A stretch of DNA of 27,359 nucleotides from Promethearchaeota archaeon (GTDB taxonomy: Archaea; Asgardarchaeota; Thorarchaeia; Thorarchaeales; Thorarchaeaceae): the NCBI GenBank assembly GCA_014728035.1, contig WJMJ01000102.1, forward strand, positions 1 through 27,359, given 5' to 3'. Under the pieces are notes generated by a model. It was not told the origin of the DNA and made no database searches. It saw only the letters and a list, made by a program, of their open reading frames with translations. This document shows positions 11,545-27,359 of this stretch, piece after piece (position 1 is the stretch's first letter; every line of letters starts with the position of its first letter). Position numbers and translations under genes: made by a program.

Positions 11545-11976
11545 TTAACAATCCCACTTCACATCAATGTCAAGTCTATGGAGTGAGTTCTGTAACACCT
11601 TCAACTCATCTCCAGTGATACTGGAGGTATACCCAAGTGAGTGTAGTAATCGCTCAATGATTGCGTATCTAACAATAGATGATCCGTTGTAACGTCCATC
11701 TACCTCTTCAGGAACAAAGTCTGTGATACGTTGAACCTCTCGTTTTCGAAGAGCCATAATATCGGAATACAGCACAGCAGCTCCAGACTTTTCAATGACA
11801 TCAAGGGACAGTAGAGCTGTACTCCTGCCTTGAGTTAGATAGGTCCTAAGTACTCCGACATTTTCAGTGTAAAAGTCTACATCTAAGTTTTCTAGGATAT
11901 AGTCACGCAGCTTGCTTCGGTCTTCAGGACTTGGTATCTGATAGATGATACAAGCTATGTCACCTAGATTGTACAT
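11545..11976 (-). CDS. Small orphan protein (143 aa), N-terminus weakly Cas2/VapD/ChrB-N-like
   Basis: ATG-started ORF. IIYQIPSPEDRSKLRDYILENL...ENVGVL resembles the beta1-alpha1-beta2 start of Cas2/ChrB-N/PaaX-type folds (fold call is by eye, low confidence). Located downstream of repeat copy 1. Confidence 0.6.
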   Translation of the reverse strand: MYNLGDIACIIYQIPSPEDRSKLRDYILENLDVDFYTENVGVLRTYLTQGRSTALLSLDVIEKSGAAVLYSDIMALRKREVQRITDFVPEEVDGRYNGSSIVRYAIIERLLHSLGYTSSITGDELKVLQNSLHRLDIDVKWDC

Positions 11977-12057
11977 GGGATGTGTGAAGAGTTCGATTGG
12001 GTTAAGGGTCGCAGTCAGCTACTGAAAACTTGGACATTGTTGGACACGACCGGATAG

Positions 12058-12195
12058 GAGGTTATGTGGGATGATACACGATGAAGGTCTGGTCACCAGA
12101 CACACATTCCCTGACCAGGACCGAGCCAGTTCCAATACCGTTTCTGGACGGACAACGCTCGGAGATTTAATATTATCCATCAACCAATAAACGGT
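12058..12195 (-). repeat. Copy 1 of a conserved structured intergenic element (candidate ncRNA/leader)
   Basis: Reverse complement aligns without gaps to 27222-27359 (106/138 identical). Core 12108-12162 is 53/55 identical. Stems CCGAGC/GCTCGG, TCCAG/(T/C)TGGA and TGGTC/GACCA. Confidence 0.9.
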
Positions 12196-12206
12196 TCTGG
12201 GCGGTT

Positions 12207-12239
12207 AAAATAAAAAATGAGAGAGCAAAAAGCGCTCTC
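12207..12239 (-). terminator. Hairpin plus T-tract terminating the 863-aa membrane protein gene
   Basis: Minus strand: GAGAGC-GCTTTTT-GCTCTC-TC-ATTTTTTATTTT, just after the stop at 12244. Confidence 0.7.
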
Positions 12240-12243
12240 GAGT

Positions 12244-14835
12244 TTATACTATACTTCGTGATACATTTCCAGTTTCATTTATCGATTTCAGCGTGGTAAT
12301 AATACCAGGATAAGGATTATCAATCGATAGAAATTGATCGAATGAACCTCTGCCATCCAAGAATAGACCCCATGCGGGAACAACTGCTTTGATCAGATTG
12401 TAAACTGCGTAGCTAGAGCCAAATGCAGTTATGAAGACCAATATGAATAACAACCATAATTGAAGAGCAGGAATCATTGCTGATAGACTATTGAACACAA
12501 GGTAGACAATTCCTAGGATGAATCCAACTGCAACAAATCTGCTCATTCCAGGTGAATAGGATGTTGCAGTGTTTGCGATTGAATGAGCGTACGTTAGAGA
12601 ATAATATCTTCCTCGTGAATCATAACCTAATGGTCCGTACTGAGTAACAGTCTCATCAGAATCTGATACGGTATAGGCATAGACCCTGCTTCGTGTAGTC
12701 CAAGTAAGACCGAACTTTTCTAGCCATAGAAATCCATCAAATTCTCCACTCCACGTTCCGAACATGAATAACTGGAAAACCATACCTTTGATGACATACC
12801 AGCCAATTAGCTCGGCTCCGAACAGGACAAACATCCAAATTCCCAAGCTGGAAAAGGAAATGAAGATGGATCCTAAACCAACTAATAGGATTACTATACT
12901 AGTAACAGAGTGGATTGAAGCAAAATATCCTTCATACTTCAAATTATGTTCTGCATTACTATCTTTGTTTACAACTAAGGAAAAGAAATTCTGTATCTTC
13001 TCCTCAAAGGACAGTAAATATGCTGAAAATAATCCACTATATCCAACTACAAGTATTAACGATAGTCCAAGAAGAACAATCAGGATGACTTCAAAGATTG
13101 ATAATGACAGAAATGCAATTGCCATGAATGGGAAAGATACTGCGGTTGCACTAACTAAGTCGGCTTGCGGCTTTGCATGTGCATACATATACTCAACACA
13201 AGTTGAATCGTGTAATTGAGTTCCCAATTGAACAACTTTATCATTTCCAAGCGAGGGTGAATCAACCTTTTTGAATCGAGCCGAGTCAACTGTTGCATAT
13301 CTTAGGCCGTCAATGTTTAGAAATGAGAGGATTCTATCCACTGCATTAGCATGATGATGTACAATCTTGGGTGGATTGATACACACATCATGTTGTGTAC
13401 TAAATTTCAAAGCGTGGAAATAATGAAACTCGATCTCATTTTTAGCTATATTATGCATTCGGTAGATTAGATAGAGTTCAACAAGAGGAGTGGTACTACT
13501 GATAAGAATACCAAACATCACATAACCTAGTCCAAAGATTCCACTTGACAATAGTATTATTGCTATAACCATCAATATTGCTGCAATTCGTGATTGCTCT
13601 ACTGCTTTTTCAGCTCCTTCAGAACAAGATCTCTTACATACAACTAATGGTAGCAATATGAAAAGGACAAGTGAAACTATCGAGCCAATTACAGAAAAAG
13701 GGTCTCCTATCCCATAACCACTAACACCAGATGAAAGTAAGATATAATAGCTCCATGCAAAAGAAATTGAAAAAGATGCAATCAATGACGCATATATTTC
13801 GATTGGAATCTCCCCAGTCATTATTCTTGTTGGATGTGTCCTCGTTTCAACTCTGTTGATAGCTGAAATTGGTATGTCTTGCTCATGATATTGACCACCA
13901 TGAATCATTTCAGTTGAGATTCGATTCCAAAATCGAGAGATTCCACTTGGTCTAGCTAATATTTGCGACCAAAGTGAAGAATTTCTTGTTGGAGAAGATT
14001 TTCCGGAACCTCTCTTCTTTGCATTTACGAATATGTAGACACCAATTCCAAAAATTAGTGATAATGGCAATTGAAAGAATCCAAATGGAATTCCAAATGT
14101 CAAGAGGGAAAAGAACACAAAAATGGTCTGTATTGCAGCAACCACAAATGCTTGTGGAAAAACATCTAATAAAAGAATAGGGTCTAGAGTTGAACTGCTT
14201 GAAAAATACAGATAATAAACAAACGCAGTAACACCTGCTAGAATCAACCCTTTTTTCCACCCTCTTTTTCCAACAATTGTAAATACAAACACTAAGAAGG
14301 GCACAATAAATAATCCCAGACTAATAGGTGTAGCTTCAACTGGTCCGATTCCGATAATTGAAAAAAGATTCAGAAAAGATATTCCAAAAGCATAAGAAAA
14401 CATGAGCAACACTATGGGAAGTACAATTGTAACTCCATAGAAGTATGATAGAAGCTTGGAAGAATATGTATCAAGCTGAGGACCCGACCCAGTATCAGCT
14501 GATTCCGCTCCAACCCTTGTTGTATTGATTAATCTATCATTTGTAAGAATCAAAGAATAAATTGGCACTACAACTGGACACTCATCTAGCTTCTTGGAAG
14601 CCCACACAAAAAATACGCCTATAGCAATGCAAGTGGGTCCGAAAATGAAATTTAACAGGGTGATAGTTAGTATACTACCAATTACGATCAAAATGATTCC
14701 CAATCGACCGAATAGAACTCTTAGTTTCTTATTCATTGGTTCTTCATCACTTTCTACAATCTTCTCTATCACCTGTTCTTCTTCCCTTGGAAAGAGTGGA
14801 AAATCCTCACGTTGATCTTCCAAATTTGTTTGCAT
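12244..14835 (-). CDS. Large polytopic membrane protein (863 aa) with bacterial-PH-like motifs
   Basis: Many hydrophobic TM segments. LILTNDRLI and EQDIPISAINRVETR resemble bPH-domain strands. GTGAG Shine-Dalgarno-like sequence upstream, 10 nt from the upstream gene. Confidence 0.75.
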   Translation of the reverse strand: MQTNLEDQREDFPLFPREEEQVIEKIVESDEEPMNKKLRVLFGRLGIILIVIGSILTITLLNFIFGPTCIAIGVFFVWASKKLDECPVVVPIYSLILTNDRLINTTRVGAESADTGSGPQLDTYSSKLLSYFYGVTIVLPIVLLMFSYAFGISFLNLFSIIGIGPVEATPISLGLFIVPFLVFVFTIVGKRGWKKGLILAGVTAFVYYLYFSSSSTLDPILLLDVFPQAFVVAAIQTIFVFFSLLTFGIPFGFFQLPLSLIFGIGVYIFVNAKKRGSGKSSPTRNSSLWSQILARPSGISRFWNRISTEMIHGGQYHEQDIPISAINRVETRTHPTRIMTGEIPIEIYASLIASFSISFAWSYYILLSSGVSGYGIGDPFSVIGSIVSLVLFILLPLVVCKRSCSEGAEKAVEQSRIAAILMVIAIILLSSGIFGLGYVMFGILISSTTPLVELYLIYRMHNIAKNEIEFHYFHALKFSTQHDVCINPPKIVHHHANAVDRILSFLNIDGLRYATVDSARFKKVDSPSLGNDKVVQLGTQLHDSTCVEYMYAHAKPQADLVSATAVSFPFMAIAFLSLSIFEVILIVLLGLSLILVVGYSGLFSAYLLSFEEKIQNFFSLVVNKDSNAEHNLKYEGYFASIHSVTSIVILLVGLGSIFISFSSLGIWMFVLFGAELIGWYVIKGMVFQLFMFGTWSGEFDGFLWLEKFGLTWTTRSRVYAYTVSDSDETVTQYGPLGYDSRGRYYSLTYAHSIANTATSYSPGMSRFVAVGFILGIVYLVFNSLSAMIPALQLWLLFILVFITAFGSSYAVYNLIKAVVPAWGLFLDGRGSFDQFLSIDNPYPGIITTLKSINETGNVSRSIV

Positions 14836-14845
14836 CAGATCTCAC

Positions 14846-15376
14846 CTACCTCGGAATTATTTTCCCAATAAAAATACGTGAGGCGTTAATGATATCTTGA
14901 ATCATCTCGCGGGGTAAATTCCAGAATTCGGAATCTCCAGAACTTAGGTGGATAGTCATTCTAGCCTCATTCGAGTCTGTATTCGCTAGTATTTCAACAG
15001 ATTCAAAAAATCTATAGTGAAGGTCTCGAACAGCAGCATTCTTCATACGGATGTCAATAAATTCCTCAACAATGCGATCAGTAGTTACAATTATCCTAAG
15101 TCGTTTTCTCATAAACAAATAGGTGTATATCCCTAAAATCACGAGTAATACACCTGCAATTATCATGCCATATCCAATATAGTTTGTAACAAGCAGATAT
15201 GATAATGAGAGAAAAGCTCCAATAATAATCAATGCCACTCCCAAAATAATGAAGAGAATAGCCTTAAGATTTTCATTCTTTTCGACTGTTGCTTCACTAA
15301 GAATTTCTTCATTGGGATTTGTTTTGAATCCGATAACTTCTTCGATTTCTGTGATACCATTCATTAATTTCACCAC
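14846..15376 (-). CDS. Two-TM protein with C-terminal bacterial PH (bPH_2-like) domain
   Basis: PNEEIL, two TM helices, then IIVTTDRIVE...VRDLHYRFFESVEI...MTIHLSSG, a typical bPH layout. Confidence 0.7.
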   Translation of the reverse strand: MVKLMNGITEIEEVIGFKTNPNEEILSEATVEKNENLKAILFIILGVALIIIGAFLSLSYLLVTNYIGYGMIIAGVLLVILGIYTYLFMRKRLRIIVTTDRIVEEFIDIRMKNAAVRDLHYRFFESVEILANTDSNEARMTIHLSSGDSEFWNLPREMIQDIINASRIFIGKIIPR

Positions 15377-15629
15377 GATTTGAGGTCACTAATTACTACC
15401 TCAATCATGATAACGTTATAATAGGAAGAAAAGGATAAAGATAATTTATGCAAATAAAAAAATAGTATTCTATAATAATCTGGTAGATATACTGAATAAT
15501 AAAGCTCAAATTTCTCAAAACAAATATTATGGAAAGTAGCTTCATAGAAACTTTGCCCAAGTTCTGTGCAACGGTTATTTCGGTACTCAATTAGGTGAAC
15601 ATTCAGCTCCTAGTGACAGAGGAGTTCAC

Positions 15630-16067
15630 ATGGAATTTGAGTTGGCAGAAACGGGAATAATAACTATTGAAGTAAATGAAATAGGGGGAAATAGAGGATT
15701 CTATGAAATAGGAATATATGACCCGATTAGTTCAATTCTACCTTGTCTAGGATGGTGGGTATGTCCTATAGCTTTTGGTTTTATCTTTGCTTCTATTGTT
15801 ATTTGCTAACGAAGAAGAGGAATCTTTGATAGTGCAACACGCGTAAGCAAGTTCCCTGTGACTGTTCAAGCTCCGAGTCATGCAATTCCAGAAAAGTATA
15901 GAGATAGTCCAGATATCCGAACTGTAAGAATACCTGAGCAATGCCACTCGTGTGGAACGAATCTTTCGCAAGATAACCTTGAATGGACAGGACCACTGGA
16001 AGCAAGATGCCTATACTGTGGTGCAGCAGTCAAAGCCAAGTTCGAAAGAGTACAGTATTCAGTATAA
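15630..16067 (+). pseudogene. Interrupted TM + C-terminal zinc-ribbon protein (in-frame TAA at 15807-15809)
   Basis: ATG 15630 frame reads ...WWVCPIAFGFIFASIVIC*RRRGIF... and continues in the same frame into the 15858-16067 ORF with CHSCG...CLYCG. Confidence 0.7.
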
Positions 16068-16068
16068 T

Positions 16069-17136
16069 TCAGCTGAATACTTCTCGAACTAAATTATCTG
16101 CATTCCTGAATGGATCTATATTGCCCTGATAACCAGCTAACTCGTCTCTGTACCTTTTTTCCAATTCTAGAGCAAACTTCTCCAATCTATATTTCATCTC
16201 GGGAATTGATCGTTCTGTTATCAAGATGCAGGTAAATGCAGCACGCCGATGAAATAGTATCGTTCTGGAGCCATGTTGAATCTCATCGAGACCACTCTTA
16301 TCAGCTAATATCTCTCCAATCAGATTATTGATGCCACTCATTGCTCCTGCAACAAGGATACTATCAGGAGCTTTTTCATCGCCGCCATTGGGCAACTCAA
16401 TCTGTCTGAAAGTGAAATCAACCATCGGAAGGGAAGCCTCAGCATCAACAACCAATAGACGGTTGAGGTCGAATAGCCAATTAAGGTCCTCAGAGCTTGG
16501 TATATACCACCATGACACGTAGAGGAATATTACCCCTACTAGGACTAAGATATTTTTAATGACAAAGAATAGTACACTATAATCAAAAGCTACTATGAAA
16601 TTCGCAAAGCCACTCAGCATAAATCCAAGTACGAACCATATTTGAGGAAACTTAGCCCTTGCAGTTTCAAGTTCGAGGATACGGTCAAGATATGCCTGAG
16701 TAACGTACACGATTGCCACAGCAAGACCAATGAACGCCAAATAGCCCATCCCAAGTGTAATTCCAAGAGGAATTGACACTAATGTAAAGATGAGACAAAA
16801 TAATGTAACAAATGGTTTCCTTTCTCCAAATACAGCTTGATCCTGTTCCATTGCATATGTGAAGAAAATTATCCCTGATATCCATGTTGCATTTCCTATG
16901 AATTCTATACTCGCATTAGAAATACCTTGGTATAAGAAATGAATCGATGTGAAGAACGTATAGACACCGAATGTGAAAAGATACACAGCTAAACCTGTGA
17001 TACTCGATACAATTTTCTTACTTCTCCGAATCATCCCAATAGAAATAGCACAGAGAATGAATACAGTCAAGTAGGTAGAAGTGACTGCAAAATCGCGCAT
17101 TATTATTTGGAACAGGTTTTCCTGCATCAATATCAT
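16069..17136 (-). CDS. Seven-TM membrane protein with C-terminal longin/roadblock-like domain (Asgard-type)
   Basis: Seven hydrophobic helices in the first ~210 aa. C-terminal LVAGAMSGINNLIGEI...LDEIQHG..TILF...LEKFALELEKRY...GNIDPF pattern characteristic of Asgard longin-like domains. Confidence 0.7.
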   Translation of the reverse strand: MILMQENLFQIIMRDFAVTSTYLTVFILCAISIGMIRRSKKIVSSITGLAVYLFTFGVYTFFTSIHFLYQGISNASIEFIGNATWISGIIFFTYAMEQDQAVFGERKPFVTLFCLIFTLVSIPLGITLGMGYLAFIGLAVAIVYVTQAYLDRILELETARAKFPQIWFVLGFMLSGFANFIVAFDYSVLFFVIKNILVLVGVIFLYVSWWYIPSSEDLNWLFDLNRLLVVDAEASLPMVDFTFRQIELPNGGDEKAPDSILVAGAMSGINNLIGEILADKSGLDEIQHGSRTILFHRRAAFTCILITERSIPEMKYRLEKFALELEKRYRDELAGYQGNIDPFRNADNLVREVFS

Positions 17137-17193
17137 TTCCCGTTGATTGGCTTATGAGATAAAGATAATTAAAATAATCGCAATCTGAAAGAA

Positions 17194-17877
17194 TTACTTC
17201 TTCCAAGCCCAGTGGATAACGGATACTCCTGGCGGAAGAGTTTTCCATTGCACCTGGACAAATCCAGACTGACCTATGATCTGTGCAAACCTCTTTCTGG
17301 TGTAAAATGACATTATGGACTCGGCTAAAAATCCATATTCATCCTTGCTTCTGGTGAATATTCTTCCTAGTGTCTTCACAATTATCTCAGTATAGACTTC
17401 TAGAAGATATTTGAATGGCCTCCGTTGAGGAATTGTCGTTTCAAGATTCAGAAACAGACCACCTCTTCTAAGAACTCGATGAAACTCTTTGATTGCGGTT
17501 TGCAGAGTATCTAATGATTGATTCAGATTTCGCGTAGCAAATGAAATGGAAAGGACATCAAATGTTTCATCTGGAAATGGAAGGTGTTTTGCCTCAGCTA
17601 AGGTCAATCCTAAATTTTCTGTTTTCAACAAGGTTCTAGCTTTATCCAGCATAGGTTTTGAAAAATCAATTCCGATAATCCTTCCAGAGAATCTTGATTT
17701 CAGTTCCTGGAGCATGTCTCCAGTTCCACAACAGATATCAAGAATATCCAAAACACCAGAACGAGGTATACTGTCAGCAGCATTTCTACGCCAAAAAGAA
17801 TCTAGCCCCAAAGTAAATAGTCTATTTACGGACTCGTAATATTGAACGATTTTTGAGAAGGTTTTTTTCAAATTCAA
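17194..17877 (-). CDS. UbiE/MenG-family SAM-dependent methyltransferase
   Basis: YESVNRLFTLGLDSFWR, ILDICCGTGD, IDFSKPML, LPFPDETFD, ISFATRN, EFHRVLRRGG and Y.FLAESI. Confidence 0.85.
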   Translation of the reverse strand: MNLKKTFSKIVQYYESVNRLFTLGLDSFWRRNAADSIPRSGVLDILDICCGTGDMLQELKSRFSGRIIGIDFSKPMLDKARTLLKTENLGLTLAEAKHLPFPDETFDVLSISFATRNLNQSLDTLQTAIKEFHRVLRRGGLFLNLETTIPQRRPFKYLLEVYTEIIVKTLGRIFTRSKDEYGFLAESIMSFYTRKRFAQIIGQSGFVQVQWKTLPPGVSVIHWAWKK

Positions 17878-17931
17878 AAATACATCTCCAAAAGATAAAA
17901 GGTGAGCAATAACGATTCCTCTAGAAATTAT

Positions 17932-20274
17932 TTACTCTGGGGTGGATTTCAGGTAAATATCCACTTTTGCGCCACCGAGTGTAGACTTTGAAATTTCAAT
18001 CCAACCGCCGTACTCTTCAGCAATTTTTCTCACAAGGTATAAGCCAATTCCAGACATATCATCGATATTATCCTCAATTGATCCCGTTGTGACAGATTCT
18101 ACAATTCTTTTATCAATACCTAATCCGTCATCTTCAACAGAAACGATGATGTATTCATCCCGCTTTCCAACTTGGATGTGAATACGTGTTCCATTGGAAT
18201 GAATTACTGCATTAGAGATGACATTGGTGAATAATGGCTTGAGCAAACCACCCCCTAATGCACTTATGTTGTCGGGCATCTCGAATTGAAAAGTAATTCC
18301 TGTCTGTTCTGCTTGGAGCTCATACTCACTAATGATTTCTTTGAAGATGGGATTAAGTAAAACAAGATCAACTTCTTCAGAATCAACTTGATAGAGAAGC
18401 TGAACCCGTTCAATCAATCTCTTCTGTTCATTGATGCCATGTTTTGCTTTTTGAAGTAACTCTGTTTGAGTTTCACTAAGGTCTGTACCATCAAACAAAT
18501 CGAGATAAGTCTGTACAACGAACACCTTATTTTTCATATCATGCTTGAGAAGAGAATAGAGAAATTCTCGACGTTTTTCTGTTTCTATTTGATTAGTCAC
18601 ATCCCGAATCAGTCCAATATAACCTTCAACCTCACCATCATTATTCTCAAAATAGAATACATTAGTTTCTCCAGGAAAAATTTCGCCTGATTTTGTTCTG
18701 TAATTCACGGTGTAGAAGAAATTCGAATCAGAACTATGACTTGAAAGCTGCTCACCTAGAGTTCTGTACTGCTCTTTGCTTTCATAGAGATAATGAGTTT
18801 TCTTTCCTCTGATTTCTTCTAGGCTATACCCGAATAGTTCGGTTAATGCAGAATTACAATTGATAATATTTCTATCAACGTCAGCAACCAAGATTGCATC
18901 TCGAATACTATGAAATAATGCTTGATAGCGATCCTGAGACTCACGATATGCTTCCTCAGCCTGACGATGTTGAATCATTTCGGAGAAATGACTTACTAGG
19001 GTTTCAATAGCAGATTTGTGTCTTATCTCTCCACCTTCAAGTAAGTAAATCGTGACACTCCCATATGGTTCACCTTCTAAAGCAAAACCTACTGTGTAAA
19101 CCTTCTCAATTCCGATTTGCTCCATTATACTGTCACTTCGTTCTTTTGGTATGGATAAAGGAACTAACTCGGATAACCCATTTGTAACATATTCTAACTT
19201 TCCACTCAACGTGTATTTTTTGAGATGCTGCAATTCGTCTTGTCTAGCAGCAATTGACTCAGAAGAGCCAAAGAAATATTCTGCTAATCCTTCAACATCA
19301 TCAAGACCAACTATGGTGCGAAAACGTACTCGATCTATCTTTCTATCATAAAGTGTCACAGTGACAAAACTCTTTGGAATCGCATCACATATCGCTTGAG
19401 CGATGACTTCACAAATTTCATCAATGTCCTGAAGTCTACTTGCTTGAACTATTGTATCGTTTATCATTTGGAGTTCTGAAATGTATTGTTTTCGAGCCAT
19501 TTCTGTTTTCAGGCGTTCCGTGATATCTTGAGCAACGCCTAATATCATTGGTTCATTATTTAGGGTAATTGCAGCAATATTGATTTCTACATCATAACTT
19601 GAACCATCCTTTCGTAGATGGGTTGACGCAATCTTCATGCGTCCTCCAGTCTTTAGCTGTATCCAAACTTTTTCCCGATCTTCACGAGATATACTTTCGG
19701 GGTCAATATCACCTACGGACATTTCCATAAGCTCTTTTCTACTATATCCAGTATTTTTGCAGGACTGTTCGTTTACCATTACTATTTCGCCATCAAGATT
19801 ATGGATAAATACACCATGAGGAAGATTCTCGATAGCAATACGGAAACGCTCCTCACTTTCTCGAAGATCTTTCATAGCTTGTTCTTTTTCTTGTTCAGCT
19901 CTATGATGTCGTATCTCCTGAATGATTACATCTGCAAGCAGCTTGTACTGATTTTTCACATCACCACTTTTCTGCAGGTATCGATTTGCCCCTCCATTCA
20001 AAGCTTTCATTGCAACCTCTTCTCTTCCTCTACCAGTCAACATTATGAAAGGGATATCAGATTGTTCGCGTACTATCTTTAAGAAGACTAATCCATTAAC
20101 ATCTGGCATCTGATAGTCTGAGAGAATAAGGTCATACGAATTATTTTTGAGATGCATCATGGCTTCTTCAACTGATGCTGCACTATCAATCGTAAAACGA
20201 CTATCCTGCTTTTCAAGAAATCTTCTAGTGATTTCTAACATATCAGGTTCATCGTCTACATGAAGTATCCTCAT
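17932..20274 (-). CDS. Hybrid sensor histidine kinase (REC-PAS-GAF-like-PAS-HisKA-HATPase)
   Basis: REC (ILHVDDEP, DLILSDYQMPDVNG), two PAS domains (TGYSRKEL..RKDGS; FGYSLEEI..TKSGE), H-box KHDMKN, N-box NVISNAVIH, and G-boxes DDGLG and GIGL. Confidence 0.9.
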   Translation of the reverse strand: MRILHVDDEPDMLEITRRFLEKQDSRFTIDSAASVEEAMMHLKNNSYDLILSDYQMPDVNGLVFLKIVREQSDIPFIMLTGRGREEVAMKALNGGANRYLQKSGDVKNQYKLLADVIIQEIRHHRAEQEKEQAMKDLRESEERFRIAIENLPHGVFIHNLDGEIVMVNEQSCKNTGYSRKELMEMSVGDIDPESISREDREKVWIQLKTGGRMKIASTHLRKDGSSYDVEINIAAITLNNEPMILGVAQDITERLKTEMARKQYISELQMINDTIVQASRLQDIDEICEVIAQAICDAIPKSFVTVTLYDRKIDRVRFRTIVGLDDVEGLAEYFFGSSESIAARQDELQHLKKYTLSGKLEYVTNGLSELVPLSIPKERSDSIMEQIGIEKVYTVGFALEGEPYGSVTIYLLEGGEIRHKSAIETLVSHFSEMIQHRQAEEAYRESQDRYQALFHSIRDAILVADVDRNIINCNSALTELFGYSLEEIRGKKTHYLYESKEQYRTLGEQLSSHSSDSNFFYTVNYRTKSGEIFPGETNVFYFENNDGEVEGYIGLIRDVTNQIETEKRREFLYSLLKHDMKNKVFVVQTYLDLFDGTDLSETQTELLQKAKHGINEQKRLIERVQLLYQVDSEEVDLVLLNPIFKEIISEYELQAEQTGITFQFEMPDNISALGGGLLKPLFTNVISNAVIHSNGTRIHIQVGKRDEYIIVSVEDDGLGIDKRIVESVTTGSIEDNIDDMSGIGLYLVRKIAEEYGGWIEISKSTLGGAKVDIYLKSTPE

Positions 20275-20743
20275 TCAGTATCTCCTCAAATACTTGGAGG
20301 GCGGATGGCAAAAAGCTTTACTTGCTCGCTTCTTCCAGTTCAAACCCATACATTTTGAAATATACTATAACTATTCTGTATTAGCTACATATATTCATTC
20401 CTTGGAGATAGATTACAATTATTCAAGAAAAATGAAATACGCAATTTTGTTTTTTATGAAGCCAAGTAATGGGTATTCAGAAGGGAATGATAGCACTTTT
20501 GGGATTTGAGTTGCTTGTGATACAATAATGAGCTTCCTTAAAGGTAATCTGATTATCATAATAAGCAAATTGCAAAAAAAGTCACCAACTTGTACTAATG
20601 AGATAATTATTTTATGTAACCTTTTAAAAAATGTAACAAATACGATACCTGTTTAATAAAGAACTATGGTCCTAGAAAATGATGTGCCAATAGTTCAGAA
20701 ATGCTGATATTTTCTTAATAGTGCAAAACTCTAGGTAATCGCG

Positions 20744-21023
20744 ATGAAATGCTGTTGAATGTGGTTCAAGTGCTGTAAGATATAATAAATGCTGGAATTG
20801 TGGCTGGACTCTACCCGACATTTCCATTCCATATGAGTACAAACGTTGTGGACATAAAGCTCATCATGCGCAAGATTTTCAAAATGATCTGTGTCCTAGA
20901 TGTAGGACAGATGCCGGAATCTGTCTACGTTGCGGAAGGAAAAGTGGAAGCCTTGATATTCTTGGTCTATGTCAAGAATGTGTAATCGAAAAACGAAAAT
21001 CACAATATGATTCGAGATTTTGA
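20744..21023 (+). pseudogene. Frameshifted multi-zinc-ribbon small protein (~92 aa if one base is removed)
   Basis: ATG AAA TGC (T) GTT GAA TGT GGT: skipping one base gives MKCVECGSSAVRYNKCWNCG...CPRCR...CLRCG...LCQEC...RF*. AGGT upstream. Not in the ORF track. Confidence 0.7.
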
Positions 21024-21030
21024 GTTTCTG

Positions 21031-21048
21031 TGAGCCCAGTTGGGCTCA
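21031..21048. terminator. GC-rich hairpin after the zinc-ribbon gene
   Basis: TGAGCCCA-GT-TGGGCTCA, 7 nt after the TGA at 21021-21023 and between convergent genes. Confidence 0.55.
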
Positions 21049-21179
21049 TAATAATTCTTGATATCAGTATATTATTCATGAGTGTATATTTGACTCTAAT
21101 AATCATGGATTGAAAAGAATATACTCAGAAAGTCAATTGGATGTATCTGGAAAGTGTATTGAATGCATATTACTGGTGT

Positions 21180-22751
21180 TCAAGATTTTATTTCTGAATA
21201 TTTAGACTCAACTTTTTTCCGGTGAACTGTGTTATATGTACAAAATGGTATAATCGTACCTTCGGGTGTAGCGTAATTTATAGTACAGTGCTGAACCCGT
21301 TCAAGATCTATATTCCAAGCATCTTGAAAATGCATCATACCTAGCATCACGACCCGATGCATAAAGGAAGCGAGAGAATCATAATCGCCCCGATTTAGAA
21401 ATGCAGAGATGATATCTTTCATGAATGAACGCTTCTTAATATGTCGCATAAAACCTGCAAGTTTTAATTTCGCTCTGAGCCCTCGGAATCGTTTCTTATC
21501 CGCATAGAGTTCGCAGATGTCTTCCAATACCTCCATCAATTTCTCAATATCGAGTACCTGAGTTATTGGATAATACGTTCCGTCAGGATCTATGAATAGA
21601 AATGTCGCCATTCCACAGGCAAAATGTGAATGTAATTCAACAGTTGGGACTCCCTTCATAAGACCGAGAGCTCGGCCAACCCCCATCATGGAAGCGACTG
21701 GATACCAATCATCCGCTTTTACCTTCCCACCCGTCTGCTTCTCTATTGCATGAATTGCATCAGGAATGGTGATGCGCATTCTTCTTCGTTCTTCGTAATC
21801 GATTCTACCTGTGATACTGACTGGTTGAAAGTTGATACATCGTACAATATCACGATTATCAATTGCGTACTGGATAATGCCACCCAGTTCCTGGTCATTT
21901 GTACCTTTTACGATTGTAGGAACCAATACTACTCCATCGAGTTTGATCACCCGACAGTTATCAAGCACTTTATCTTTGACTTCTCGCAGGTCTTGACCTC
22001 GAGCTTCAAGATACGGTTTTTCTGATACTCCATCGAATTGAAGATAAATTGTATTCATTCCTGCATCCATTAAGGACTTGAGATAGTCTGCACCCCTGGA
22101 CATTCTAATACCATTTGATGCAACCATGATATGATTGAAGCCTAGTTGCTTGGCCCATTTGATATATTGAGGTAAATTGTCACTGACAGTCGGCTCACCA
22201 CCTGCAAATTGAACTGCAGGACTTGGAACAGGAAGATTTCGTCTCAATGTCTTGAGCATATCAAGAACCTGTTCTGGTGTGGGTTCGTATACCCGACCAG
22301 ATTCAGCTGCATTAGCAAAGCAAATTGGACATCGCATGTTGCACCGATTGGTCACATCAATGAGTCCCAATGCAGTATGTGCTAGATGACGGTCGCAGAA
22401 TCCACAATCATTTGGACATCCTTCTGAGGATTTATTTCTAGGATTATCAACTCCAACGGATGTGTACCAATGTCGCATAACCCGTTTGAACATATCTGCA
22501 TCAGACCAATATACATCAGTGAAATGGCCATGTTTCTCACAGGTCTTTGACATCAATACTTCTCCATTCTCTTCGAATACTGTTGCAGGAATTACTGTGG
22601 TTTCGTTATTCTCCAAAAGACACTCGGGACATAGTGAACGTGTTTCGTAGGGTAAATCCCTTACCGGATACTTGGTCATTCGGTATCGTTCAAGGTCATC
22701 AGGATCGTGACGTTCCTCTTTAAGAGGTATTCTATCCAATTCCTCCTTCAT
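21180..22751 (-). CDS. tes: Tetraether lipid synthase (Tes / GDGT-MAS, MJ0619-like radical SAM)
   Basis: N-terminal rubredoxin-like SLCPEC...KTCEKHG, auxiliary GCPNDCGFC..H, radical SAM CNMRCPIC, QFAGGEPT, IYLQFDG, FQPVSITGR, HFACG and C-terminal C..YATPEG.IIPFCTYN. Confidence 0.8.
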   Translation of the reverse strand: MKEELDRIPLKEERHDPDDLERYRMTKYPVRDLPYETRSLCPECLLENNETTVIPATVFEENGEVLMSKTCEKHGHFTDVYWSDADMFKRVMRHWYTSVGVDNPRNKSSEGCPNDCGFCDRHLAHTALGLIDVTNRCNMRCPICFANAAESGRVYEPTPEQVLDMLKTLRRNLPVPSPAVQFAGGEPTVSDNLPQYIKWAKQLGFNHIMVASNGIRMSRGADYLKSLMDAGMNTIYLQFDGVSEKPYLEARGQDLREVKDKVLDNCRVIKLDGVVLVPTIVKGTNDQELGGIIQYAIDNRDIVRCINFQPVSITGRIDYEERRRMRITIPDAIHAIEKQTGGKVKADDWYPVASMMGVGRALGLMKGVPTVELHSHFACGMATFLFIDPDGTYYPITQVLDIEKLMEVLEDICELYADKKRFRGLRAKLKLAGFMRHIKKRSFMKDIISAFLNRGDYDSLASFMHRVVMLGMMHFQDAWNIDLERVQHCTINYATPEGTIIPFCTYNTVHRKKVESKYSEIKS

Positions 22752-23050
22752 TGATGTTCAATCCAGGCTTGATTCAGGGAGTAGCAGGATTCAATTGTAA
22801 TTCAAGGTTGTCTGATGCGTCAACACATACTCTCAGGTCTTCTAGAATGTAATTTGCCACTTATTACTCTGTTTCTTTGCGCCCATTCAGGAGATATTTT
22901 CAAGTTTGGTTACAATTATGGTAAAGTAGGTGAATCCGTCCCTACATTTGATAGTATATCGTAGAAAGACAAAACGAAAACATAGGTTCCAACATCGAGA
23001 ATATACAACTGGAGGATGAAAATTCGACCAGTGTTGAATCTAAACAATCA

Positions 23051-23659
23051 TCATTTTTTCCTAACGGGATGTCTGATTACGGTCTTTATTTTAGATGGTT
23101 CAGTCCTAGCAGGGTCACTAAGATATATCTCATGATATTTTCCGTGTAAAAGGTATCCAAACTTTTTTGCATGGGCGTGTATCTTCTCTATTGATGCTTG
23201 TGTAGTATTGGGCGGACCAATATGAAGAATCTGAACAGATTTTCCCTCATGAAATGATTCTAACCGAACCTTCTCTATCGCAATTGGATTCTTCATCTCG
23301 GTGACAGTAACCACAGCTTTGTTGAATATGTCTTCAGTCACTCGATCAGGTTGCATAATCATACTCGTCCAAGAGAATTGATCTTTCTTCTCTATAGAAA
23401 ACTCTGAATCCTCAACCCATAACAGACATTCTAGAGGCATGACTTCAAAATCATAATCCTGTTCTCTCAGCATAGCCCGAATCGTATATGCGACCTCTTG
23501 AAGCGCTTCAACACCTTCTTGATATCCCTGAGAGGTATACGGGTCACCCATTCCATCAATCATCACGAATTTCATTTGAGGAACAATAACAACTACAGGG
23601 ATTGCAGGAGAAGGTTGATACAAGACTTTTAGTGCATTCTTGAAATCAATTTTTGGCAT
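23051..23659 (-). CDS. GyrI-like small-molecule-binding domain protein
   Basis: FVMIDGMGDP, VMPLE.L.W, WTSMIMQP, VQILHIGP and YHEIYLSDP..T...IKTVIRHP. Confidence 0.9.
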   Translation of the reverse strand: MPKIDFKNALKVLYQPSPAIPVVVIVPQMKFVMIDGMGDPYTSQGYQEGVEALQEVAYTIRAMLREQDYDFEVMPLECLLWVEDSEFSIEKKDQFSWTSMIMQPDRVTEDIFNKAVVTVTEMKNPIAIEKVRLESFHEGKSVQILHIGPPNTTQASIEKIHAHAKKFGYLLHGKYHEIYLSDPARTEPSKIKTVIRHPVRKK

Positions 23660-23804
23660 TACTGGTCCTCCGTAACAGATAAGTTCTCAAATCCAAAAAA
23701 TGCATTGTTCCTCATAATGATACCTATTACCAAGCTCATTCATTGAATCAATCGAAGCTGCAGTAGTAGGTATATTGATTTGCATTCTTGATTAAAATCG
23801 TTCT

Positions 23805-24698
23805 ATGACATTTTCAATTGTAGCAGTTGATGTTAAGAGTAAAGAGATTGGATTTGCCATCGCATCATGTACCTGGGATGCAGGAATGGTCGGTACTGCA
23901 AAAGCGGAGAGAGGTGCACTATGTTCACAAGCTCAGGGTTACTTTCCATTTCACTCAGTTCTATACGAAAAACTAGAGGAAGGCTTGAATCTGGAACAGA
24001 TATTTGAAGAGTTCAAAAAGATTGACGAAGATATTGAAAATCGTCAGGTGGGTATGGTTTCATTCTCAGGAGAAGTTTTTGCATTTACTGGAAGTAGAAA
24101 TGATGACTACGCAGGTCACATAATCGGAGATTCCTATGCTTGCCAAGGGAATATCTTAACTGGCCCTGAGGTTCTTGAACATATGTCTAAAGCATTCGAG
24201 TCAACCAATGGGATGTTAGCTGAAAGACTTTATGCTGCTCTTCAAGCTGGTGATGACGTCGGTGGAGACATTCGTGGAAAAATGAGTGCACGAGTACTGG
24301 TGAAGAAAAAGAAAGGGTCGGATTTAGAGGATACATTCATTGACTTGCGAGTTGAAGACCACAAAGAGCCAGTGAAAGAGATTGGACGTTTGCTCGAGGT
24401 TAGAAGAAAGATACTGAAAGCGTATCTATCAATGCAGAAAGTGATTGAATCGGAAGGAGAGGACAAAATTGATGCTTTGAAAGAAATGGAGAAATTCCTT
24501 TCTGACAAAGTGGATAGAACGGTTATAGATTATCACTCATTTCTTGCAGATACATTCCTAAAGCTTGGAATGGAAGAAAAAGCAATCAAAGCATATCAGA
24601 ATGTTCTCACAATTGGACCGAAAATGATCAGAGTAATTCGAAAACAGACGAGTTCTGGAGAGATACCAAATTCAGTTTTTGAAAGAATTGTCGATTAA
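23805..24698 (+). CDS. DUF1028 (Ntn-hydrolase-like) protein with C-terminal TPR-like helices
   Basis: MTFSIVAVD, RQVGMV, AFTG, CQGNILTG, GGDIRG and DLRVEDHKEPVKE. TPR-like LADTFLKLGMEEKAIKAYQNVL. Confidence 0.9.
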   Translation: MTFSIVAVDVKSKEIGFAIASCTWDAGMVGTAKAERGALCSQAQGYFPFHSVLYEKLEEGLNLEQIFEEFKKIDEDIENRQVGMVSFSGEVFAFTGSRNDDYAGHIIGDSYACQGNILTGPEVLEHMSKAFESTNGMLAERLYAALQAGDDVGGDIRGKMSARVLVKKKKGSDLEDTFIDLRVEDHKEPVKEIGRLLEVRRKILKAYLSMQKVIESEGEDKIDALKEMEKFLSDKVDRTVIDYHSFLADTFLKLGMEEKAIKAYQNVLTIGPKMIRVIRKQTSSGEIPNSVFERIVD

Positions 24699-24703
24699 TT
24701 AAC

Positions 24704-25930
24704 TCAGAGTTTGACGATAAAGGATTGAAGTAGATTGGATTCTCCAGTCTTCAAAACATCTCCGATTACTGATACCGCCCGTTGGTCAAGCTTAAGACGT
24801 TCTGCAATCTGAGGGAGAATATCGAGAGTAATTTCGCCCTCAATATTATTCTCTATGAGCCAAATAGCAGAATCATATGGTTTTGCTCGATACCAAGGTT
24901 GCTGATTGATATATTTAATGTGGAAAGAAATTCTAAGAAGGGTTTCAATAATGACCTGATTGATTTGGGGTACTCCATGTATAGGCCATAGAGGAATCCT
25001 ATAATCGATTCCTAACTTGTTACATAGATGGTACCCTTCCTTTATCACGTTAACAGGTAATAGTTTGTATGCTGGAGCACCGTAAGGATCTTCATTTTGG
25101 TATATGCGTTCAATTAAGGGACGCTTTTCCGAAAACCGTTTTCTTAGGACGGACATGAAATAGTCTTTCTGCCGGCCTGGCTTCAATGTGAGACCCCCCC
25201 ATAAAATATACTCTCCTTTAGCTTTTTTCGTGGCTTCTGCCAACTTTCGCATATTTTCCTGAGTATCGCTTATACCAGGAATCAAAGGCATAGCAGCAAT
25301 GCCACCATGAAGTCCCGCTTCACGAATCTCTTTGAGTGCATTAAATCTCTCATTTGTTGTTGACGATTTAGGCTCAAAGACTTTCTTCACTCCGTCATCC
25401 ATTAGTGTGACAGTGAAGGCTACATTAACCAAAGACCGTTCATGAATCTCCTTCAGCAAGTCTAGGTCTCGAAGTACCAAATTCGATTTTGTAAGAAGAA
25501 AGATAGGTATCTCGAAATCCAACATAACCTCTAGAATTTTCCTTGTGACTTTGTATTTCTTCTCAGCTTGTTGGTATGCATCTGACACACCACCCGACAC
25601 CCCGATAATGAATTTTGGAGGACTGTCATTTTGTAATCTCTTTATATCATCAGAATCTAGAAAAGGAATCAGGCTCTCGGTTTCCATTTTTGACCGTGAA
25701 GAAAAGCCCATCGATTCAAGCTCTTTTCTAACAATCTCCGGAGCATTCTCTTTGACTCGGATATGAGTGAGGAAATTATCAACATGGTAAGATTCAGACA
25801 TACCATCACAATATACACATCCAAATTCGCAGCCGCGATATGCGTTCATTGAGTGACGTGAGTTAAACCAGTGATCAACTCCTTTCTGTTTGGATAGTAT
25901 GGATTTTGCTATAATGCACTCATACCTCAT
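24704..25930 (-). CDS. SplB-like (Rv2578c-family) radical SAM protein
   Basis: MNAYRGCEFGCVYC, SDAYQQAE, LLTKSNLVLRDLDLL, FEPKSSTTNERF and MPLIPGISD. Confidence 0.85.
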   Translation of the reverse strand: MRYECIIAKSILSKQKGVDHWFNSRHSMNAYRGCEFGCVYCDGMSESYHVDNFLTHIRVKENAPEIVRKELESMGFSSRSKMETESLIPFLDSDDIKRLQNDSPPKFIIGVSGGVSDAYQQAEKKYKVTRKILEVMLDFEIPIFLLTKSNLVLRDLDLLKEIHERSLVNVAFTVTLMDDGVKKVFEPKSSTTNERFNALKEIREAGLHGGIAAMPLIPGISDTQENMRKLAEATKKAKGEYILWGGLTLKPGRQKDYFMSVLRKRFSEKRPLIERIYQNEDPYGAPAYKLLPVNVIKEGYHLCNKLGIDYRIPLWPIHGVPQINQVIIETLLRISFHIKYINQQPWYRAKPYDSAIWLIENNIEGEITLDILPQIAERLKLDQRAVSVIGDVLKTGESNLLQSFIVKL

Positions 25931-26045
25931 TGTTATCCAAGTTATGATTATGTTCTATCAAATTAAGTAGTTGCCTTTGATTATTGGATAGAGAAACACA
26001 ATTATCAATACAGGATAATTAACAAAATTGAGTTTGAGGATAAAA

Positions 26046-27062
26046 ATGGATGAGAGAAGATGCAGAGCTAGAGAGATTCGCAGAGAGTACTTCAAGGATA
26101 AATCTGAAATCAGCATCGCACACGGACTGAATCAGGAATTAGTTGAGGATATTTTAGCAGTGAATCCAGATATTCAAATCTTACAATTCGAGTTACTAAC
26201 AGACACAAAATTTGAAACCGAGCTTCTATCTCATTTCAAGTCGCTCATACAGATTGGAGTCTGGGGAGGTACCAGCCTGAAAGAGGTTGACCTGAAAGGA
26301 CTATCTGATGTGAAGTCATTGGTCAAGTTCGTTCTTAGTATACAACCTACAAACGGAATTGATAAAGTGGATATTTCACCCCTCGGCAATCTTGATAATT
26401 TGGAGATTGTAAATATTCTCTGTCCTCTTCGAAAGCTAATAGGTCTAGAAAAATTAGGCAATTGTCCAAATCTTTATGCTTTACAACTTGCTTCTTTGGA
26501 TGTGGATAACCTCGATCTTTCTAGACTGAGTGGCTCTGGAATTAAAAGTCTACACATAAACGACTTGGGTAAGCAATACCCAACTCAACCGTACATCATA
26601 AAAATGCCAAGGAATATTCCACTCTCTGAATTTGTGGTCTCCCAATGTTATAGTCCAGAGTTAAAGGTAGAGATTGACTTTTCCTGGATTGAAGATGTTG
26701 AAGCTATAGATAATCTAACGCTTAGCCAATGTAATCTATCATCATTTGATCTCAATGTTCTATCCCCTTTACGGAGAATTGGTTCTATTGATCTTACAGA
26801 AAATGAGTTTACTCATCTTGATATCACACCCATTCTTGACAAACCAATGTTCACCGAAAAGACATTTACAGAGTCAGTATTCAAAGTAGATGAAAATGTC
26901 ATGATTCAGATTGATAAAACGAAACAAGATGAAATCGATTCGCTTATCGCAAAAGAAGACACTATGATTGAAGAACATCAAGGATACCTAACGGTACTTC
27001 CAGAGTTTGGACACCATTGGCTAGAGGATTTAATAGAGAAACATGATGTCGAATGGATCTGA
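26046..27062 (+). CDS. Leucine-rich repeat protein
   Basis: Repeated LxxLxL/DLSPL units (VDLKGLSDVKSL, VDISPLGNLDNL, LDLSRL, FDLNVLSPL, LDITPI). ATG 26046 follows GAGGA; the ORF track starts at TTG 26028. Confidence 0.8.
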   Translation: MDERRCRAREIRREYFKDKSEISIAHGLNQELVEDILAVNPDIQILQFELLTDTKFETELLSHFKSLIQIGVWGGTSLKEVDLKGLSDVKSLVKFVLSIQPTNGIDKVDISPLGNLDNLEIVNILCPLRKLIGLEKLGNCPNLYALQLASLDVDNLDLSRLSGSGIKSLHINDLGKQYPTQPYIIKMPRNIPLSEFVVSQCYSPELKVEIDFSWIEDVEAIDNLTLSQCNLSSFDLNVLSPLRRIGSIDLTENEFTHLDITPILDKPMFTEKTFTESVFKVDENVMIQIDKTKQDEIDSLIAKEDTMIEEHQGYLTVLPEFGHHWLEDLIEKHDVEWI

Positions 27063-27163
27063 TCAACGAGTTGAATCAGTATCCCCCACACTTGTTCAAA
27101 TTTGTTATTGGATGGATTTTAGAATACAATTGCTATTCACGCGAAAAAGAGGAGTGATGGAAA

Positions 27164-27183
27164 AAGGAGTCAGAAGACTCCTT
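27164..27183. terminator. Perfect 8-bp hairpin between LRR gene and repeat copy 2
   Basis: AAGGAGTC-AGAA-GACTCCTT preceded by an A-run (T-run on the minus strand). Confidence 0.55.
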
Positions 27184-27221
27184 ATCCAATCAAGTAGCGA
27201 CTTCACAGTCTTCAGATTGCG

Positions 27222-27359
27222 ACCGTTCATTTTTAGTTGGACAAACTTAGACACCCGAGCTTTGTCCGTCCAGAAACGGTACTGGAACTGGCTCGGTCCT
27301 GGTCAGGGATCCTGTGTCTGTAGACCAAATCTCTATTCCAGATCACTCCATATAAACTC
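27222..27359 (+). repeat. Copy 2 of the conserved structured intergenic element (runs off window end)
   Basis: Ungapped 106/138 match to the reverse complement of 12058-12195. Core 27255-27309. Confidence 0.9.

Follow-up and report, generated by a model that had tools for sequence, protein, structure and literature searches.

The whole stretch of DNA analyzed here (the window, 27,359 nt) is the entire contig C71 of a Thorarchaeota (Asgard) genome that is assembled into 173 contigs (4.33 Mb). The window contains two copies of a short repeat, which we describe below as a mobile element related to transposons that encode TnpA and TnpB. A repeat search of the window identified the arms 12058-12195 and 27222-27359 as an inverted pair of 138 nt with 77% complementarity (106/138), and the second-longest inverted pair of the window is 35 nt long at 71%. 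Inside the arms there is a GC-rich core of 55 nt (12108-12162 and 27255-27309), which differs between the copies at two positions. An earlier reading of this DNA, made from its letters only (the sequence-only reading), had described both the pair and the core, and these were borne out by the repeat search and by a coordinate check. The pair is therefore real, but the extent suggested for it (at least 138 nt) fell short. When nine full copies are aligned together with their flanks, they define an element of 190 nt with sharp boundaries that, in the orientation of that reading, starts with ACCGTTCATT... and finishes with ...GC(A/T)ACCC. Copy 1 covers 12006-12195 in full, whilst copy 2 is cut by the contig end.

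Each copy is located ~30-35 nt past a hairpin that is itself found 3' of a co-directional gene, as had been noted before. The hairpin near copy 1 is GAGAGC...GCTCTC (~12219-12238) and the one near copy 2 is AAGGAGTC...GACTCCTT (~27165-27184). The open reading frames (ORFs) beside the two copies (11545-11976, 143 aa; 12244-14835, 863 aa; 26028-27062, 344 aa) show no Pfam family at an E-value of 0.01, and the simplest view is that they lie next to a mobile element by chance. A tRNA scan of the window found none. The Rfam scan, which covers riboswitches and the RAGATH-type TnpB RNAs, gave no match at the gathering score in the whole window and, with E-values up to 10 over 11900-12300, its only hit was the unrelated CRISPR-DR26 (E = 5).

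An nhmmer search of the genome with a profile of the element resulted in 52 matches, far beyond chance. Of these, 15 are full or nearly full, another 30 are cut by contig ends and the remaining 7 are decayed or partial. The halves at the contig ends are of two kinds (15 + 15), each of ~140 nt and with ~90 nt of overlap between the kinds, which is the pattern given by a repeat that is longer than the k-mer of the assembler. It follows from the 30 cut matches that the repeat breaks the assembly, as was suspected from the position of copy 2; it accounts for ~9% of the breaks, with 30 of 346 contig ends inside it. In total, the genome holds about 35 copies. Over its 138 nt, copy 2 shows 100% identity to eight other contig-end copies and is therefore a member of a recent burst. 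Copy 1 represents a second subfamily, and is 97% identical over 157 nt to the copies on contigs C126 and C166.

Ends, insertion sites and related larger elements

In the transposon orientation, which is the reverse complement of the one used before, the element starts with GGGT and finishes with AACGGT. GGT is found at both junctions in 29-30 of 32 aligned copies; the left GGGT is present in 29 of them and the right end is CGGT. In the multi-copy alignment the tips, GGGTTGC... and ...GAACGGT, form no terminal inverted repeats. A target duplication is absent, and the flanks are unrelated between copies on both sides (at least 30 junctions). Just inside the ends are two pairs of 7-mers, TTGGACA-nnn-TTGGACA on the left and TGTCyAA-nnn-TGTCCAA on the right, that jointly form subterminal inverted repeats and are presumed to be binding sites of the TnpA helix-turn-helix (HTH) domain. 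The ends and these motifs are the best-conserved segments of the element, with a column identity of 0.85-0.89. The GGT junction is presumed to serve as the recombination core and as a motif like the target-adjacent motif (TAM) of TnpB. The left flank has no fixed motif of 4-5 nt and shows only a weak preference; of 30 copies, 19 have A at -2 and 25 have A or T at -1.

Copy 1 lies on the plus strand in this orientation and matches the nhmmer model over positions 1-190 (score 206). Its left junction GGGT (G + GGT) is at 12006-12009, its left subterminal direct repeats TTGGACA-ttg-TTGGACA are at 12030-12046 and its right tip AACGGT is at 12190-12195. The 27 nt before the tip (12163-12189) are aberrant; this segment is ~60% identical to the family, unique in the genome and lacks both TGTCCAA motifs, whilst all other fresh copies have TGTCyAA-gtt-TGTCCAA at this place. 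Because the right-end TnpA motifs are lost, copy 1 is probably immobile and stranded at its site, and it may be a recombinant between subfamilies. The same segment loosely resembles the right end of an old copy at C121:79234-79418. Copy 2 (27222-27359, minus strand) is both fresh and typical. It includes the right end, the folded module and the TATA-like box described below, and ends at element position 53. Its right subterminal repeats TGTCTAA-gtt-TGTCCAA (27237-27253) are inverted relative to the left pair.

A larger element with the same end motifs and tips was located from a partial profile match at C25:210045-212645. This 2.6-kb element has GGGTTGCGGG...TTGGACAaagTTGGACA at one end and TGTCCAAgttTGTCCAAgtaacaatcaACGGT at the other. 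Its tnpA encodes a 123-aa MerR-HTH protein with an early stop in the serine-recombinase domain, and its tnpB encodes a protein of 713 aa (Pfam Cas12f1-like_TNB, E = 1.4e-15), the C-terminus of which aligns with solved TnpB/Cas12f chains. On contig C16, an intact TnpA of 204 aa, with a MerR HTH at residues 11-45 followed by a Resolvase domain at 69-192, is located behind a matching left end. The left ends of both larger elements carry the same TTGGACA motif pair as copy 1. The locus continues after TnpA (C16:28000-31891) with an opposite-strand ORF of 539 aa without a Pfam family and then with a tnpB fragment that runs off the contig. The fragment is 66% identical to residues 258-325 of the C25 TnpB. 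The C16 locus is a larger or rearranged element and may be the active source of TnpA. On the tnpB strand the 55-nt core reads TCCAGTACCGTTTCTGGACGGAC and the last codons of the C25 tnpB read TCCAGTACCGTTGCTGGACGGAC. Due to this resemblance, the small element can be described as a left end joined to the 3' end of tnpB with its right end, and within the 190 bp these parts take up ~85 bp and ~105 bp, respectively. The left part holds the GGGT junction, both TTGGACA motifs and the TATA-like box, and the right part includes the TGTCCAA pair and the AACGGT tip.

The related full elements carry the hallmarks of the IS607 family, namely a serine recombinase in which the HTH comes first, asymmetric ends, no target duplication and a GG core, and the small copies have no protein-coding capacity, as expected of a miniature inverted-repeat transposable element (MITE). 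Our best explanation, to which we assign a probability of about 0.6, is that the repeat is a 190-bp gene-less MITE, or mini insertion sequence (mini-IS), of an IS607-family transposon that has kept the scaffold of the TnpB guide RNA (omega RNA). The anatomy of a mobile element, the homology to TnpA/TnpB elements and the covariation of the helices described below are shown directly, whilst transcription, its strand, TnpB loading, homing and mobilization in trans are inferred. The sequence-only reading had in fact listed the end of a non-autonomous mobile element among its options, and this option was right.

The option it preferred was different, namely a new family of cellular non-coding RNA or cis-regulatory element, such as a riboswitch, a leader or a small RNA, on the strand that it had folded and positioned after the terminators of the upstream genes. 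The hairpins that precede both window copies, the good folding of that strand (z-score -2.3) and the Rfam result would all suit such an RNA. Yet the ~35 copies have unrelated flanks and occur in either orientation, 30 contig ends fall inside the element, the neighboring genes are unrelated and without a Pfam family, the ends are common to TnpA/TnpB transposons, and the reconstructed empty sites show no preference for hairpins. Together with the homology of the core to the tnpB 3' end and right end, these observations do not support a new cellular RNA family, an idea we consider very unlikely, and so a false lead is removed.

Another type of element that comes to mind is a palindrome-associated transposable element (PATE) of the IS200/IS605 family, which is moved as single-stranded DNA by a Y1 HUH transposase. 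Asymmetric ends, the lack of a target duplication, hairpins and a TnpB-type RNA module are found in Geobacillus PATEs as they are here. Against this stand the MerR-HTH serine recombinase encoded by the related full elements, GG(T) at both junctions and the weak A-W preference of the left flank in place of a fixed motif; a Y1 tnpA was not found inside any element with these ends. A PATE is in our view even less probable than a cellular RNA. The least probable explanation, one that we regard as practically negligible, is that the repeat is part of an ordinary coding gene that was duplicated. Many copies do still have the former tnpB frame open, but the open frame differs between the subfamilies. 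The copies show neither a conserved frame nor codon periodicity, and the third codon position is not the most variable one (variability of 0.81, 0.67 and 0.67 by codon position). The three-nucleotide pattern of divergence that a coding origin would have left is thus missing, and the duplicated-gene reading was rejected.

Two further ideas about the insertion sites were tried and rejected. In silico removal of 15 copies restored no long reading frame and the retained copies are mostly intergenic, with no sign of splicing or of gene interruption that would point to an intron or an in-frame insert. A preference for hairpin targets, which was hinted at by the window copies, was not seen in the reconstructed empty sites, with a mean of -8.2 kcal/mol compared to -9.0 kcal/mol for random GGGT sites (one-sided p = 0.93). 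At two other loci (C4:10725-10740 and C121:79700-79715) the first GGGT of the element completes a host hairpin, ACCCC-CGTA/TTCG-GGGGT. At these loci the bases are therefore shared with the target, and the insertion took place into the 3' arm of a terminator-like tetraloop hairpin. Comparison with the same-genus genome G001 gave no DNA match to the flanks of copy 1 and no alignable orthologous empty site; the match on the side of copy 2 ends at the stop codon of the upstream gene.

The folded module and its strand

The folding of the element was analyzed on an alignment of 32 distinct copies from its own genome and seven relatives, using RNAalifold and our own pair counts. Three helices are supported: P1 (CTGGTC/GACCAG), P2 (CCGAGC/GCTCGG) and P3 (TCCAG/CTGGA), the last nested in P2. 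These helices had already been proposed from the two window copies, and they are real and covarying. The fraction of paired cells is 90.6%, compared to 85.1% in shuffles (0/500 reach the observed value) and 24-46% with slid partners, although the copies are related and such cell counts overstate the number of independent events. Two-sided changes are found in all six pairs of P2, and P3 is closed by U-A in 17 copies and by C-G in 13. In P1, 85.8% of the cells are paired, with 12 U-G wobbles on the tnpB strand, and the tnpB-linked versions pair with a different sequence. Covariation is clear for P2 and P3, and for P1 it is clear mainly in comparison with the tnpB-linked versions. In the G009 subfamily the alignment is one column off, and when read correctly this subfamily pairs perfectly as CGGAGU/ACUCCG. 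With the 52 matches in its own genome and the two-sided changes in P2, the structure seen in two copies has gained both homologues and covariation.

In copy 1 (plus strand) P1 spans 12089-12118 with an 18-nt loop, P2 spans 12121-12162 and encloses hairpin P3, and P3 is formed by 12131-12135 with 12144-12148, has an A-C mismatch and closes the loop ACCGTT (12137-12142). In copy 2 (minus strand) P1 is formed by 27323-27328 with 27299-27304, P2 by 27291-27296 with 27255-27260 and P3 by 27282-27286 with 27269-27273, around the same loop (27275-27280). The 55-nt core of the sequence-only reading corresponds to the P2/P3 region with the 3' half of P1. In 92.7% of the cells, and also in copy 1, the loop of P3 (ACCGUU) could pair with the AACGGU that closes the element, which suggests a candidate pseudoknot between the loop and the tip; the tip would also form the end of the scaffold.

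A covariance model that was built from the gene-less copies only (R1) matches the tnpB 3' end with the right end in 20 of 23 TnpB loci, and in copy 2 it scores 127.8 bits (27222-27330). In the TnpB loci this is the place of the omega RNA, which lies on the strand of tnpB between the 3' end of the gene and the boundary of the right end. In 19 tnpB-linked loci the tip AACGGT is kept and conservation ends at the GGT.

Helix pairing by itself says little about the strand, since G-C and A-U helices are symmetric between the strands. Other properties make it quite probable that the RNA strand is the tnpB strand, so that an RNA, if made, would most likely be read from the strand opposite to the one folded in the earlier reading. 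One is the position and orientation of the module relative to tnpB. Another is the number of G-U wobbles, 56 on the tnpB strand compared to 24 on the other. A third is a box that resembles the archaeal B recognition element and TATA box (BRE/TATA-like box; family consensus GGAGyTTATATr), found at a constant spacing of 21 nt to P1 in 30 of 32 copies. The column identity of the box is 0.83, compared to 0.72 and 0.68 in the neighboring segments. In copy 1 it is located at 12057-12068 (GGAGGTTATGTG) and is weaker (GTTATGTG). An archaeal TATA box is centered near -26, which would place the start of transcription at about the first base of P1, and the sequence and spacing of the box are consistent with a putative promoter.

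What the module is kept for can be explained in another way. It may be that the repeat is the same IS607 mini-transposon but its right half is kept as DNA for TnpA, or is simply inherited from a recent master copy, and no guide RNA is made or used. We take this explanation seriously, yet hold it to be clearly less probable than the retention of a guide RNA scaffold. It gains from the fact that the ends and the TTGGACA/TGTCCAA motifs are conserved best, that the pseudoknot shows no covariation and that folding energy does not favor the tnpB strand. On the other hand, P2 and P3 pairing is kept through two-sided changes across subfamilies of different genomes without the constraint of a reading frame, and the conserved TATA-like box lies at a fixed distance upstream. 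We also know of no need of a serine recombinase, which acts on double-stranded DNA, for such hairpins. The lengths of the ends can be used in both directions: for excision of the Clostridium botulinum IS607 element, 40 bp on the left and 60 bp on the right are enough (Zedaveinyte et al., 10.1101/2023.11.20.567912), whilst the right part retained here, at ~105 bp, is longer than that.

Several observations weigh against a retained guide RNA scaffold of an IS607-type parent. The assembly contains no autonomous element with near-identical ends; those of C25 and C16 share the motifs but show an identity of only ~60-70% as estimated by eye, and of their genes the tnpA on C25 is truncated, whilst the tnpB on C16 is interrupted by the contig end. 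In P1 and P2 the small copies have other sequences than the C25 tnpB, so it is uncertain that this TnpB would use them. The three helices also pair in the tnpB-linked loci, with different sequences (81% of the cells compared to 62% in shuffles), and this speaks for the structure, but the alignment was fitted to the model and is thereby biased toward it. No pair of the candidate loop-tip pseudoknot has a compensatory change, and recombination is a further constraint on the tip. As for the strand, z-scores of the minimum free energy favor the strand of the sequence-only reading for the commonest subtype (-2.3 vs. -0.1) and are equal for copy 1.

Comparison with known systems and a possible guide function

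One of the closest described systems is the IS607 IStron of C. botulinum (Zedaveinyte et al., 10.1101/2023.11.20.567912). IS607 elements recombine at a GG core and have neither inverted repeats nor target duplication; the IStron TnpA requires matching GG core dinucleotides and prefers TGGG targets (10.1101/2023.11.20.567912). The TAM of its TnpB is TGGG whilst the scaffold ends in UCGG, and this G/C difference before the GG shields the occupied site from being cleaved (10.1101/2023.11.20.567912). A pseudoknot to the 3' end of the scaffold is essential, and the omega RNA works in trans (10.1101/2023.11.20.567912). The Thorarchaeota elements are similar in the HTH-first serine recombinase, in the asymmetric ends with motifs in both, and in GG at both junctions, where the contrast TGGG/UCGG of the IStron corresponds to G-GGT/C-GGT, with G preceding the core on the side of the target and C on that of the transposon. 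In both systems tnpB is located beside the right end and a scaffold ends at the boundary, and the IStron pseudoknot to the 3' end of the scaffold has a candidate counterpart here. They differ in that the natural element found here is 190 bp long and has lost both genes, whereas the 'mini-IS' in the IStron paper is a laboratory construct. The host is archaeal, the partner TnpB has 713 aa and there is no group I intron. In addition, the partner in the candidate pseudoknot is the loop of the innermost hairpin, and in the IStron it is the first 'nexus' stem-loop.

Many gene-less PATEs of the IS200/IS605 family carry omega RNAs, which depend on a TnpB provided in trans (Meers et al., 2023, PMC10055086). 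The elements described here are alike in being multicopy and without proteins, and in keeping the ends with a guide-RNA scaffold, so that TnpA and TnpB would be borrowed in trans. PATEs are moved as single-stranded DNA next to a fixed TAM, whereas these elements belong to a serine-recombinase (IS607) lineage. Asgard TnpB groups were also linked to an Asgard Cas1 (aCas1), which was proposed as their transposase (Altae-Tran et al., 2023, PMC10691335). Those groups are a TnpB lineage confined to Asgard archaea and may include the 713-aa partner. In contrast to the proposed aCas1, each of the 19 TnpB loci that we examined is closed by a right end of the IS607 type, TGTCCAA-nnn-TGTCCAA...AACGGT. 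In the papers searched we found no report of natural IS607-derived mini elements, nor of this family in Asgard archaea.

Based on these systems, the most likely working model can be sketched. A TnpA serine recombinase made elsewhere, for example from the intact copy on C16, would excise and insert the mini element via the GG(T) core without producing a target duplication. The genome has an intact TnpA, and identical copies are found at different loci, both of which would agree with such mobilization in trans. Transcription from the TATA-like box would start at P1 and proceed through P1, P2/P3 and the loop-to-tip pseudoknot to ~20 nt into the flank. The guide derived from the flank could then lead the trans-supplied TnpB of 713 aa to the site left empty by excision, and a cut there would lead to restoration of the copy by recombination. 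By analogy to IS607/TnpB biology the putative guide flank of copy 1 is 12196-12215 (plus strand) and that of copy 2 runs from 27221 down to 27202 (minus strand), each of which occurs once in the genome. Within the genome no 20-nt right flank of any copy has a second match of at least 16 nt that could serve as a trans target.

A bolder proposal is that the mini-transposons are self-promoted guide-RNA cassettes, where each copy (~30 or more per genome) would be read from an archaeal promoter of its own and would load the large Asgard TnpB in trans with a locus-specific guide. This is tentative and, in our estimate, somewhat improbable. If true, a gene-less parasite would draw on its parent for the recombinase as well as for the RNA-guided nuclease, in a natural multi-guide system within the closest archaeal relatives of eukaryotes. 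Should the predicted RNA be made, it would be a natural case of gene-less IS607 elements with promoter-driven TnpB guide RNAs, and would provide a compact and well-aligned scaffold of ~105 nt for the study of an unusually large Asgard TnpB.

Distribution of the element and side observations

A search by DNA similarity found whole 190-nt copies in 8 of 41 related genomes, and these eight belong to the same family. The R1 module is more widespread, with 2-53 matches in each of 18 out of the 24 other genomes of the family and none in the 16 genomes outside it. R1 matches are far more numerous than tnpB genes. Among the 19 genomes with R1 matches, 17 have a TnpB homologue and 13 a TnpA homologue, and these distribution counts are descriptive only, as the genomes are related to one another and incomplete. 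The exact boundaries can be used for masking and annotating a repeat that is found in most of the sampled genomes of this Thorarchaeota family.

Three of the genomes (G008, G009 and G013) have 46-53 R1 matches, compared to 37 in the genome of the window, which indicates independent expansion in several genera. The family of the 713-aa TnpB (~700-740 aa, with 41-57% identity among full-length matches) is present in 16 of the 24 other genomes.

The flanks of copy 1 (11993-12005 and 12196-12208) have 12-13 nt on both sides in common with those of a copy that is split between the end of contig C163 (16671-16682) and the start of C83 (147-159), TCGATTGGKTTAM ... TMYGGGCGGTTA. The two parts of the split copy overlap at 135/135 positions, and its subfamily differs from that of copy 1. 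The common flank could be a preferred target, or it could result from insertion into another small repeat.

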